A DNA stretch of 64,000 nt, taken from positions 960,001 to 1,024,000 of the forward strand of contig OY970323.1 in the NCBI GenBank assembly GCA_963716985.1, written 5' to 3'. This DNA is from an uncultured bacterium. GTDB lineage: Bacteria; Chlamydiota; Chlamydiia; Chlamydiales; SM23-39. The position numbers and the translations under genes were made by a program. Positions 42,568 through 44,275 of this stretch are shown here, in pieces. Positions within the stretch are counted from its first letter, which is position 1. Each line of letters opens with the position of its first letter. Below the pieces are notes generated by a model, which was not told where the DNA came from, ran no database searches, and saw nothing but the letters and a program-made list of their open reading frames with translations.

Positions 42568-42778
42568 GGGCTCCGGTGCTAAATTCCAACAGAGCGCAGA
42601 GAAGCCCAATTCCAACAGCTAGGCCAAGGCCCCAGGAGGCCATGGAGAAGGCAAGAGAGTCATAAACACTGCTGTGGGCTGCATGGCCTTTGAGAGGCCT
42701 GTGCGAGGGTTCTTGTGCCCATAACGGGCCTTTCAAACACAAAAGCAGAGCAATTAGCAAAAAAAGACTTTTTTTCAT
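42539..42778 (-). CDS. Small exported protein with C-terminal TM and HAH/acidic tail
   Basis: MKKSLF signal peptide, C-terminal hydrophobic helix, GAHAHDSDDDD end. Confidence 0.7.
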   Translation of the reverse strand: MKKSLFLLIALLLCLKGPLWAQEPSHRPLKGHAAHSSVYDSLAFSMASWGLGLAVGIGLLCALLEFSTGAHAHDSDDDD

Positions 42779-42950
42779 CGGATTGACAGCGTGGAAACCC
42801 ATTCCTTTAAAGATGGGAGGAACCGCCGCTCCTTTTGTTTTTAAGTTATCAAAACGGGGGAGTTCTTCCCCATCGCAGTTACCTGCACTCACAGATAAAC
42901 TGCAGGCCTGATCGCTCACGCCTCTTCCTTATCTGGAAGGAGTAGTTGAC
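42779..42950 (-). mobile_element. Non-autonomous IS200/IS605 (IscB-type) mini-element, internally deleted relative to 43298-43648
   Basis: Minus strand begins GTCAACTACTCCTTCC...GGAAGAGGCGTGAGCGATCAGGCC, shares TGCAGGTAACTGC, and ends AAGGAGCGGCGGTTCCTCCCATCTTTAAAGGAATGGGTTTCCACGCTGTCAATCCG directly before ATGAA. Confidence 0.8.
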
Positions 42951-43263
42951 AATTCACTGCTTGCGCAACTAATTTTCATGGTACACATTAGAAGTTTTTA
43001 TGGAAAGAGGCTATTTTCAGGTCCAAAACCGGTGCAAGAATATCACCGTCGCTTTTGGCGCAAGGAAAAGGGACCTCGTTTGATAAACGGAATTATTTTT
43101 TCAGAATATCTCTTATTTGTTAGACGATTTAGGGCGTTAAATTAAAATTTTTGGTTTCTTTAAGCATTTTTTTAAATCATTTGTAATTCTTTGGCGATAA
43201 GAGACTTGCGCAACTTTGAGAAAAATTTTGCGAAAAAAAAGATGTGTTTTGAAAAGACATGTG

Positions 43264-43272
43264 TGTTATAAA
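43264..43272 (+). promoter_or_regulatory. Putative extended -10 element for the omega-RNA / V-ATPase transcript
   Basis: TGtTATAAA; would put +1 near 43279, ~19 nt upstream of the element end. Confidence 0.45.
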
Positions 43273-43278
43273 AGCCGT

Positions 43279-43540
43279 GACGATCTCAAGGTGAAATGTC
43301 ACCACCCCTCCCTGAAGGGAGAGGCCTGAGAGATCAAGCCTGAAGTTGACCAGCCTTAAGTCTTAAGGCAACTTGGGACTATGTTAGGAGCGAATATAAA
43401 TAGGTACCTTGGAATGCCGCCTCAGTTCTAAGCTTTGCGGTTAGCAGTTAAACCAAGCGTATGGGTTAAACCAGTACTGTTAACATGGTAAACCGCTCCA
43501 TAACTTTGGCGAGGGGAACGTTACCCGGGAAACCGGAGAT
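43279..43540 (+). ncRNA. HEARO/omega-RNA-like structured RNA (5' flank-derived guide plus scaffold)
   Basis: Ordered HEARO-like motifs GTTGACCAGCC, ATAGGTACC, GAATGC...CAGTTC, GTTAAAC, AAACCG...ATAAC-TTTGGCGAGG; nested helices GTCAC/GTTGAC, AGTCTTAAG-GCAA-CTTGGGACT, GTTAGGAGCG/CGCTCC-ATAAC, GTTAGCAGT/ACTGTTAAC, CCGG-GAAA-CCGG; both ends approximate. Confidence 0.82.
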
Positions 43541-43648
43541 TGCAGGTAACTGCTAGGGGGGAGCAATTCCCCGCTTTTAAGTTTAACAATGAAGGAGCAG
43601 CACCTCCTCCCACCCCTAAAGGGATGGGTTTCCGTGCTGTCAAATAAG
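43298..43648 (+). mobile_element. Non-autonomous IS200/IS605 (IscB-type) element carrying omega-RNA but no IscB/TnpA ORF
   Basis: Subterminal hairpins CTCCC-TGAA-GGGAG (left) and CCCAcCCC-TAAA-GGGATGGG-TTTCC (right); no TIR or TSD; followed immediately by ATGAA. Confidence 0.82.
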
Positions 43649-44275
43649 ATGAAAGAAATCGAAACGGGAAAAGAGAAGATCCAGAAAATTTGTGACCTTT
43701 TGCGAAAAGAGACGCTTGATCCTGCCAAGCAAGAAGCGCGAGAGATCGTTGAAAATGCCGAAATGCAAGCGAAGCAAATATTGGAAAAGGCCAAAGAAGA
43801 CGCGACCGAACAGCTTCACATAGCCCGAATGGGAATCGAGAAAAAGAAGAAGATGTTTGAGGATTCGCTGCAGTTTTCCGTAAGGCAGTCTCTAGAAGAG
43901 TTGAAACAATCGATTGAAAAGAAATTTTTCCGGGAAAATCTTCAGAAGCTCATTCAAGAAAAGATGGCAGGCCCTAATGTGATTGCCGACCTCATTTCCG
44001 CTATCGTCGAGGCGGTCCGCAAGGAAGGGATCGAAAGCAATCTTTTGGCCTATGTTTCGAAAAAGATAGCTCCGGAAAAAATCATAGCTTTTTTGGGATC
44101 GAATATTATCGACCAGTTGAAGAATAAAGAGCTCGTCTTAGGGGATTTTGAAGGCGGCGTTAGGATTCGTTTGGAGGGGCGCAATATAACGATTGACCTC
44201 ACCGATGAAACTCTTCGAGATCTGCTAGTGGATTATATTCGCGAGGATTTTCGTCATTTGTTCTTTCAGAAGTAG
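43649..44275 (+). CDS. atpE: V/A-type ATP synthase subunit E
   Basis: MKEIETGKEKIQKICDLLRKETLDPAK, chlamydial subunit E N-terminus; first gene of the operon (an in-frame ATG also exists at 43589 inside the element). Confidence 0.9.
   Translation: MKEIETGKEKIQKICDLLRKETLDPAKQEAREIVENAEMQAKQILEKAKEDATEQLHIARMGIEKKKKMFEDSLQFSVRQSLEELKQSIEKKFFRENLQKLIQEKMAGPNVIADLISAIVEAVRKEGIESNLLAYVSKKIAPEKIIAFLGSNIIDQLKNKELVLGDFEGGVRIRLEGRNITIDLTDETLRDLLVDYIREDFRHLFFQK

Follow-up and report, generated by a model that had tools for sequence, protein, structure and literature searches.

Two short mobile elements in a 64,000-nt stretch of an uncultured chlamydial genome (GTDB lineage Chlamydiota; Chlamydiia; Chlamydiales; SM23-39; assembly GCA_963716985.1, contig OY970323.1, positions 960,001 to 1,024,000; hereafter the window) end exactly where a host gene begins, and the locus thus raises the question of why a transposon should come to lie on a start codon. 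A sequence-only reading of the window had reported that both elements end at an ATGAA start codon, and the junctions agreed with this: element 1 runs into a V-type ATPase subunit E-like gene on the plus strand (...GTGCTGTCAAATAAG/ATGAAAGAA, ATG at 43649; the slash marks the junction) and element 2 into a small gene on the minus strand (...CACGCTGTCAATCCG/ATGAAAAAA, ATG at 42778). Our results revealed that the two are not isolated cases. Among the copies with the same left end (LE) that were examined, 40/46 (about 87%; 16/18 in this genome and 24/28 in relatives) lay exactly on a sense-oriented start codon. The elements are derivatives of ISC transposons. We consider it probable, taking the explanation as a whole, that their LE carries a ribosome-binding site (RBS) making hits on start codons survivable, and that such copies persist by host dependence.

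Element 1 (43298..43648, plus strand) is a complete, protein-less ISC (IscB-type IS200/IS605) mini-transposon of 351 nt. Its 5' boundary was placed at the point where the flanks of 11 HEARO copies diverge and its 3' boundary by alignment of 18 ends, and both agreed with the empty site in a genome of the same genus (G001). The IscB omegaRNA scaffold (HEARO, Rfam RF02033; 43298..43524, plus strand) adjoins the transposon right end and matched the model over its full length (positions 1-211; 103.6 bits, gathering score 83, E 1.9e-21). The model end (43524) is followed by two more small hairpins and then by a terminator-like GC hairpin with a T run (43556..43582, plus strand), which lies between the omegaRNA and the LE module and came from a consensus scan whose number of such sites was not above that in shuffled sequences. 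The 70-nt LE module or 'tail' (43578..43648, plus strand) consists of AAGGAG, a 7-bp outer stem, an inner TnpA-type imperfect hairpin and an 8-nt spacer. It matched R1, a covariance model of the LE module built without flank, at 83.5 bits, and both helices covary. Next comes ATGAA (43649..43653, plus strand; TTCAT on the other strand), which, judged from the empty site and the published target, is the host target or transposon-adjacent motif (TAM) and at the same time the native start codon with a Lys codon. The host gene itself (43649..44275, plus strand) encodes a V-type ATPase subunit E-like protein of 208 aa, which aligned from residue 1 with orthologues in 20/20 other genomes searched; its Pfam match to HrpE/YscL/FliH/V-ATPase E (20.2 bits, below the cut-off of 23.5) gives weak support. 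Upstream of the element, the host 5' leader (43280..43297, plus strand; read from the sequence) is the putative omegaRNA guide and holds the displaced native Shine-Dalgarno (SD)-like motif AAGGTG (43288-43293). An extended -10-like motif, TGtTATAAA, is located at 43264-43272 and is present in G001 too. If it acts as a promoter, transcription would begin ~18 nt ahead of the scaffold, a distance close to guide length.

The published layout puts the omegaRNA at the right end of the transposon, so the hairpin module beside ATGAA is the left end. Read in the orientation of the omegaRNA, the transposon right end and the guide-RNA scaffold come first and the LE hairpin module comes last. Subterminal imperfect hairpins were present at the ends, the one at the right end lying inside the first HEARO stem. 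Inside element 1 there were only short chance open reading frames (ORFs); it has both transposon ends and is without coding capacity, as is typical of palindrome-associated transposable elements (PATEs). The IscB ORF (RRXRR/RuvC with HNH insert) is absent from both window elements. They are thus not full ISC members (IscB/omegaRNA elements within the IS200/IS605 superfamily) but non-autonomous forms derived from one.

Element 2 (42779..~42890, minus strand) is a 5'-truncated relic, recognized by blastn to element 1 positions 241-346, and keeps the last omegaRNA hairpin, the terminator-like hairpin and the LE module (R1 match of 78.8 bits, window 42778-42848). A GC-rich hairpin with a T run at 42857-42871 (minus strand) is the counterpart of that at 43556-43582 (plus strand). 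We could not find the HEARO scaffold in this truncated copy (no Rfam match on the minus strand). Its ATGAA target (42774..42778, minus strand; from the junction reading and the ORF) is the start codon of a predicted small host gene (42539..42778, minus strand), deduced as the ORF from the junction ATG, with a product of 79 aa and a signal-peptide-like N-terminus. A Pfam scan of this protein gave no family.

The insertion could be followed from the empty site. Removal of 43298-43648 leaves AAGGTG (43288-43293), then AAAT and then ATG. The uninterrupted site of G001 is ...ttaagaggaaat/ATGAAAGAAATC and reads ...GAGGAAAT/ATGAAAGAA at the junction, whereas the interrupted site of the present genome is ...tcaaggtgaaat/351 nt/ATGAAAGAAATC. 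Therefore, ATGAA is host DNA and the native start, and there was no target duplication. The candidate view that ATGAA is part of the element was rejected on the empty sites in G001. The sequence-only reading had also proposed that the insertion separated the native SD from its ATG, and this was borne out: the motif at the V-ATPase E-like gene is AAGGTG here and AAGAGG in G001, and it has been severed from the ATG by the insertion. G001 was empty at 6/6 orthologous sites examined (V-ATPase E-like, rpsF, adk-like, sctL/fliH-like, SDR and SDF). For the SDR, SDF and ruvC copies, upstream synteny with G001 was absent and homology begins at the ATG (ruvC: at residue 9). The adk-like copy lacks the native SD and ~30 nt of host leader that G001 has, the LE module alone being left before the ATG. 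This copy (G000:C1:1222537-1222965) is a degraded full-length element, truncated at the 5' end and with the IscB gene deleted internally. Another mini-element (G000:C1:389019-389379) is situated between closely spaced type III secretion genes of an operon. The stop of the upstream gene overlaps the region just before the ATG in G001, and here the upstream ORF runs ~10 codons into the element.

How general is this position? The genome is a single contig of 2.07 Mb with 11 HEARO matches. It has two full-length copies (1,632 and 1,628 nt, 96.4% identical to each other), each encoding a 442-aa IscB (RRXRR and HNH; PF14239 230.6 bits, PF01844 50 bits) whose frame enters the terminal hairpin module and ends at a TAA in the LE hairpin loop, and six complete protein-less minis of 346-381 nt. 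Element 1 is the full-length IscB element minus the IscB gene. A GC-rich hairpin with a T run was seen by eye between the omegaRNA and the LE in every mini (also at 1669, 1919, 1491, 389 and 35 kb), and in the 389-kb mini the stem is altered on both sides. When element 1 was cut exactly at the junction and used in blastn, together with alignment, 18 LE copies were obtained, half of which (9/18) are LE-only or 5'-truncated. The sequence-only reading had called for a tabulation of such junctions, and the result was a strong enrichment: the LE was followed by ATGAA in 17/18 copies and by ATGAT in 1/18, and the junction ATG opened an ORF of 79-742 aa in 16/18 (P = 6e-8 against all ATGAA outside genes, see next). 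One exception is a mini that lies ahead of a tRNA-Glu gene in the same orientation, 4 nt away. The other is the LE of a TnpB-type relic, which is followed by a 28-codon frame. The apparently intact copies are the two IscB copies and the six minis, of which five are at ORF starts and one is the copy before the tRNA gene. Pfam families were found for 16/19 host proteins scanned, including S6, adenylate kinase, FliH, secretin, autotransporter and RuvC, and some domains start early (the SDR domain at residue 3, the GT2 domain at residue 4). R1 added five weaker matches: three lie at ORF starts (ATGAGC, ATGATC, ATGAAA) and the two weakest are without ATGA, so that ATGA follows 20/23 R1 matches in this genome.

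On the strand used by TnpA the target reads TTCAT. ATGAA codes for Met-Lys/Met-Asn, so the target coincides with about one fifth of the start codons of this genome (371/1741 predicted genes, 21%). It could hence be asked whether chance and purifying selection are enough, ATGAA being common at starts, intragenic insertions being lost and the rest being sampling. Genes were called by a simple hexamer model (1741 genes, 84.6% coding), and of 7252 ATGAA sites 371 were at predicted starts, 1018 intergenic and 5863 (81%) intragenic. We then compared the observed counts with f, the expected share of starts among permissive sites including starts, P being the chance of at least the observed count. The pooled P values apply the f of this genome to relatives and are thus an extrapolation. 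When all ATGAA outside genes were taken as permissive (f 0.267), P was 6e-8 for the own copies (16/18) and 1.8e-17 for the pooled set (40/46). With sense-oriented sites upstream of a gene (f 0.386) the values were 1.5e-5 and 1.6e-11, with sites within 100 nt upstream (f 0.647) 0.02 and 6.6e-4, and with sites within 50 nt upstream (f 0.791) 0.24 and 0.13. Furthermore, at least 424 intergenic ATGAA sites that are downstream of or antisense to their neighbouring genes were hardly used, though insertion there should be harmless, indicating that tolerance alone is insufficient. On these gene calls, chance with purifying selection was tested against all ATGAA outside genes and rejected, and we regard it as scarcely credible.

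The relatives made it possible to ask whether the habit depends on what the element carries. HEARO was present in 6/40 other genomes searched and the LE module in 43/102 other genomes of the same family. Loci were taken from 29 genomes, one per genome; one was dropped for a contig end at the module and 28 were kept. ATGA followed 28/28 of these LE ends (25 ATGAA, 2 ATGAC and 1 ATGAT), and in 24/28 the junction ATG opened an ORF of at least 75 aa. By their N-termini, judged by eye, the genes hit include those for GroES, Pgk, HemE, L25 and an NAD-epimerase. Twelve copies had a TnpB as cargo (PF07282/PF01385; an open frame of 229-380 aa, antisense to the host gene and 0-16 nt from the module), and 11 of them were at ORF starts. 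Three of the four copies with HEARO or IscB, and 10 of the 12 with neither or cut by a contig end, were at ORF starts as well. Hence the habit of lying on start codons is tied to the LE and the target and not to the cargo or the IscB guide RNA. The present genome also holds a relic of a TnpB-type partner element, as indicated by an LE copy (G000:C1:1230600-1230783) with a TnpB-like N-terminus (MKRTI...) before it on the opposite strand. An R1-type end was not found near the TnpB of this genome at 56 kb.

These data bear on the capture of host promoters, which the sequence-only reading had proposed and which is in line with the model of Meers et al. In that explanation, IscB elements persist only where transcription from outside makes guide and omegaRNA, the nuclease restores excised copies, and start codons are simply the commonest sense ATGAA in transcribed non-coding DNA. 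The omegaRNA does need outside transcription, and iscB tends to be oriented like the gene upstream of it (10.1101/2023.03.14.532601). Element 1 lies ~25 nt behind the conserved extended -10-like motif, the sole mini that is not at an ORF start sits just upstream of tRNA-Glu on its strand, and leaders of up to 50 nt as the permissive set, in which starts already make up 79%, fit the data. However, leaders of up to 100 nt left the pooled data above expectation, and 8/9 of the LE-only or truncated copies were at ORF starts though they have no omegaRNA scaffold; element 2, having lost its scaffold, captures nothing. More importantly, elements with the same LE whose tnpB is antisense to the host gene lay on ORF starts in 11/12 cases. 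According to the literature, the guide RNA of TnpB elements is made from inside the element, so promoter capture for omegaRNA is not the general cause. It stays plausible for the IscB-type copies, and as the explanation of the whole pattern we think it unlikely.

A bias that is independent of cargo and is also found in seemingly intact copies could arise at insertion, if TTCAT near start codons were preferred by the transposase or were more often in the single-stranded state required by it. Initiation regions might be favoured for being AT-rich and unstructured, or a longer motif (TTTCAT, for example) might be recognized. In support of this, the next base was A in 15/17 ATGAA junctions of this genome versus 195/371 ATGAA starts overall. 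However, the upstream flanks of the 11 HEARO copies showed no sequence consensus by eye, extension of the motif to ATGAAA raised the expected share of starts to only 30%, and ATGAAT, ATGAAC, ATGAC and ATGAT were also used in relatives. Replication orientation was only weakly skewed, without a formal test: the host gene was head-on in 12/18 copies, and 876/1741 genes (50%) were co-directional. We judge such targeting by TnpA quite improbable as the main source of the bias. We did not find the cognate TnpA in this genome. Two intact Y1_Tnp genes and a broken one were present, and the intact ones (757 kb and 1,970 kb) are beside group II intron sequence and flanked by hairpins unlike those of the IscB elements. 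At G000:C1:756916-758000, and in a 99.9% twin near 1,970,000, an IS200-type Y1 gene directly follows an apparent group II intron 3' end, the intron-like sequence comprising a maturase C-terminus and domain V/VI-like sequence.

A further proposal was that the elements leave the host reading frame open and may rewire translation; in-frame starts of the element would add an N-terminal extension to the host protein, 20 aa in the case of subunit E. The starts are indeed there. In element 1 the host frame is free of stops for 33 codons upstream of 43649, and an in-frame ATG occurs 20 codons up (43589). Element 2 has 50 such codons and two in-frame starts, an ATG at 8 codons and a GTG at 47 codons (42919) from the host start. 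Nevertheless, the open frame is true of the two window copies and is not a trait of the family: a stop occurs within 10 codons in 7/18 LE copies, an in-frame start is found in 9/18 only, and the frame varies with the length of the spacer (7-9 nt). Its being open is thus incidental. In addition, the ATG at 43589 is not preceded by an SD and is ATA in most other copies. Extended host proteins are for these reasons a very unlikely outcome.

The anatomy of the LE suggests another possible role in translation. Its blocks come in the order (A/G)(A/G)GGAG, 7-bp outer stem, TTCCTCC, inner imperfect hairpin, TTTCC, closing strand of the outer stem, 7-9 nt and ATG. GGAG is kept in 16/18 own copies and in 29/33 copies in relatives, and the sequence 5' of it is unconserved. 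The outer stem was paired in 96-98% of alignment cells (98.3% in relatives), with double changes in 5/7 pairs, and sliding the partners cut pairing to 31-42%. In relatives, 0/500 shuffles matched the observed paired fraction or covariation score, and the own copies gave the same pattern. The inner hairpin has a conserved mismatch and was paired in 84-88% of cells, with double changes in 5-6 of 7 pairs. When folded at minimum free energy, most copies leave the SD-like motif single-stranded, directly 5' of the stem. The 16S rRNA of this genome ends in CACCTCCTT, the usual anti-SD, and an SD-like core precedes 800/1741 predicted starts versus 143/1741 in a control window. A comparable arrangement is described in a review (PMC3014915) for genes 38 and 25 of phage T4, in which a hairpin brings a distant SD to a functional distance from the AUG. 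The LE resembles these split sites in having the SD far from the AUG with a stable structure between them. It differs in that the intervening structure is ~47 nt long and is a transposase-binding hairpin module, and in that its RBS role is putative. We infer from this architecture that the LE would replace the displaced RBS of the host gene as a split SD. Two findings fit the LE as a replacement RBS: the adk-like copy has lost its native SD, and LE-only relics have survived at gene starts.

Similar ends were seen in other phyla. We fetched 80 loci of IscB relatives from public genomes and placed their ends by copy-to-copy blastn; only the Ca. Uabimicrobium and Moorena groups (20/80 loci) were scored, the rest having other targets or no clean boundary. 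R1 gave 17 weak matches only on the 80 loci. Seven Uabimicrobium copies end ...AAATTG/ATGAA and their junction ORFs were of 245-755 aa in four cases, 74 aa in one and at most 15 aa in two. This end has nested stems as in the chlamydial LE, without an SD before them. Thirteen Moorena loci, some of them orthologous, end at ATGA, and 12/13 open ORFs of at least 89 aa. The Moorena LE, which differs from the chlamydial one, ends ...GGAGG-N7/ATGA, which is a linear canonical SD at ideal spacing, and the motif varies among copies (GGGAGG, AAGGAGG and AAAGG; loci including L147 and L154).

We favour an explanation that combines longer persistence at starts with transcription-dependent retention for the IscB copies, and its steps are given here in the order of our confidence. 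Firstly, the LE would be built so that a start-codon hit is survivable: GGAG lies on the 5' side of a covarying stem, 7-9 nt separate the other side of this stem from the ATG, and the whole would, as a split SD like those of T4 genes 38 and 25, replace the displaced native SD. Secondly, the host gene would become dependent on the LE, so that deletions removing the LE are purged and copies at starts persist, decaying into LE-only relics such as element 2, while copies in neutral DNA would vanish. Thirdly, for IscB-type copies such as element 1, the upstream host promoter would supply the transcript, its first ~18 nt serving as the guide. Finally, an insertion preference of TnpA for start-codon DNA may add to the bias.

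Several observations weigh against this explanation. The gene caller behind the null model is crude. With leaders of up to 50 nt as the permissive set, 40/46 is unremarkable, and a pure transcription filter hence fits the IscB-type copies. Survivorship does not readily explain the seemingly intact copies at starts (2 IscB copies, 6 minis and 12 TnpB copies). It is the whole LE core that is conserved and not GGAG alone, and the invariant TTCCTCC can pair with GGAG, so that this motif may be kept for TnpA or for DNA structure and not for ribosomes. Uabimicrobium copies have the outer stem as well, without an SD before it, indicating that it is an old feature of the LE and not an adaptation for bridging. 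Moreover, the terminator-like hairpin upstream of the LE, if it works as its structure suggests, should lower transcription of the host gene, and neither a consensus scan nor inspection by eye found an outward promoter in the element.

In a bolder version, the LE of ATGA-targeting IscB/TnpB transposons would be an evolved portable translation-initiation cassette, with start codons as its niche. The host would then be unable to change the target or TAM, which comprises Met and the first base of codon 2. The RBS of the interrupted gene would be restored by a split SD in these chlamydiae and by a linear GGAGG-N7 in Moorena, host dependence would lock the element in, and dozens of genes per lineage would be translated from transposon-derived RBSs. 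We offer this as a tentative possibility, and a doubtful one.

Three repeat regions were also observed elsewhere in the window. At 53156-54519, three direct-repeat blocks share a 731-nt offset (300, 141 and 116 nt; 72-85% identity), which suggests a tandem duplicated gene or domain. At 56486-56830, four 75-nt units with an exact 90-nt period (64-77% identity) probably encode a repeat protein. At 63164-63375, two 95-nt copies, 88% identical and 117 nt apart, resemble a pair of long-arm tRNA genes.

Much of the background to these elements is known already. The element kind, the target, the TAM, protein-less derivatives and the orientation bias have all been described, and the window copies are ordinary members in these respects. 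The statement of the sequence-only reading that ATGA-type motifs are on record agreed with the literature: N/ATGA has been given as the target of several ISC and IS605B families (Kapitonov, Makarova & Koonin 2016; PMC4810608), among them ISC1-1_MA, ISC2-1_HM and ISC2-1_MS, with a terminus common to IS605B elements with inverted tnpB. Like those ISC elements, the present ones have IscB as cargo, a 5'-GT... start, subterminal imperfect hairpins and insertion 5' of ATGA without duplication, and in relatives they share one terminus with inverted-tnpB elements. Unlike them, most of the present copies are minis without a protein gene or relics of the LE, and their target is ATGAA. Start codons are mentioned nowhere in the main text of PMC4810608. 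For GstIscB of Geobacillus stearothermophilus, the TAM is TTCAT, and retention was explained by a peel-and-paste/cut-and-copy model; the omegaRNA is delimited by the right end, the guide lies beyond the element, and transcription must come from outside (Meers et al. 2023; 10.1101/2023.03.14.532601). The ATGAA of the present elements is the reverse complement of this TAM, the likeness being an identity of motif alone, and PATE-like protein-less relatives exist there too. However, the sections of that preprint consulted here describe neither a position next to start codons nor an RBS in the LE for GstIscB. The minis resemble PATEs in having both ends and no ORF, and differ from them in keeping the whole guide-RNA gene; they could direct IscB made elsewhere to their own empty sites. 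With respect to HEARO (RF02033), element 1 is a full-length match above the gathering score with extra hairpins beyond the model end. The original description of HEARO is said to be Weinberg 2009. HEARO is not mentioned in Weinberg 2010 (PMC2864571). We did not find a printed statement of the start-codon habit, or of an RBS for the gene that is hit, in our searches of freely accessible main texts or in the consulted sections of PMC4810608 and of the preprint of Meers et al.

What the analysis adds, measured against a null model, is that about 87% of elements with this LE and an ATGA target have landed or survived on start codons, irrespective of their cargo (IscB, a bare guide RNA or TnpB). 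For annotation, this means that starts beside such ends are easily mis-called; the ORF list of the window, for example, starts subunit E 20 codons and the small gene 47 codons further upstream. If the LE does act as an RBS, it would explain how an insertion of 0.35-1.7 kb between RBS and ATG is tolerated in essential genes, such as those for ribosomal protein S6 and the V-ATPase operon here and pgk and groES in relatives. It would also explain why compact genomes hardly shed these nuclease-bearing transposons, and many host genes would now be translated from transposon-derived initiation regions.

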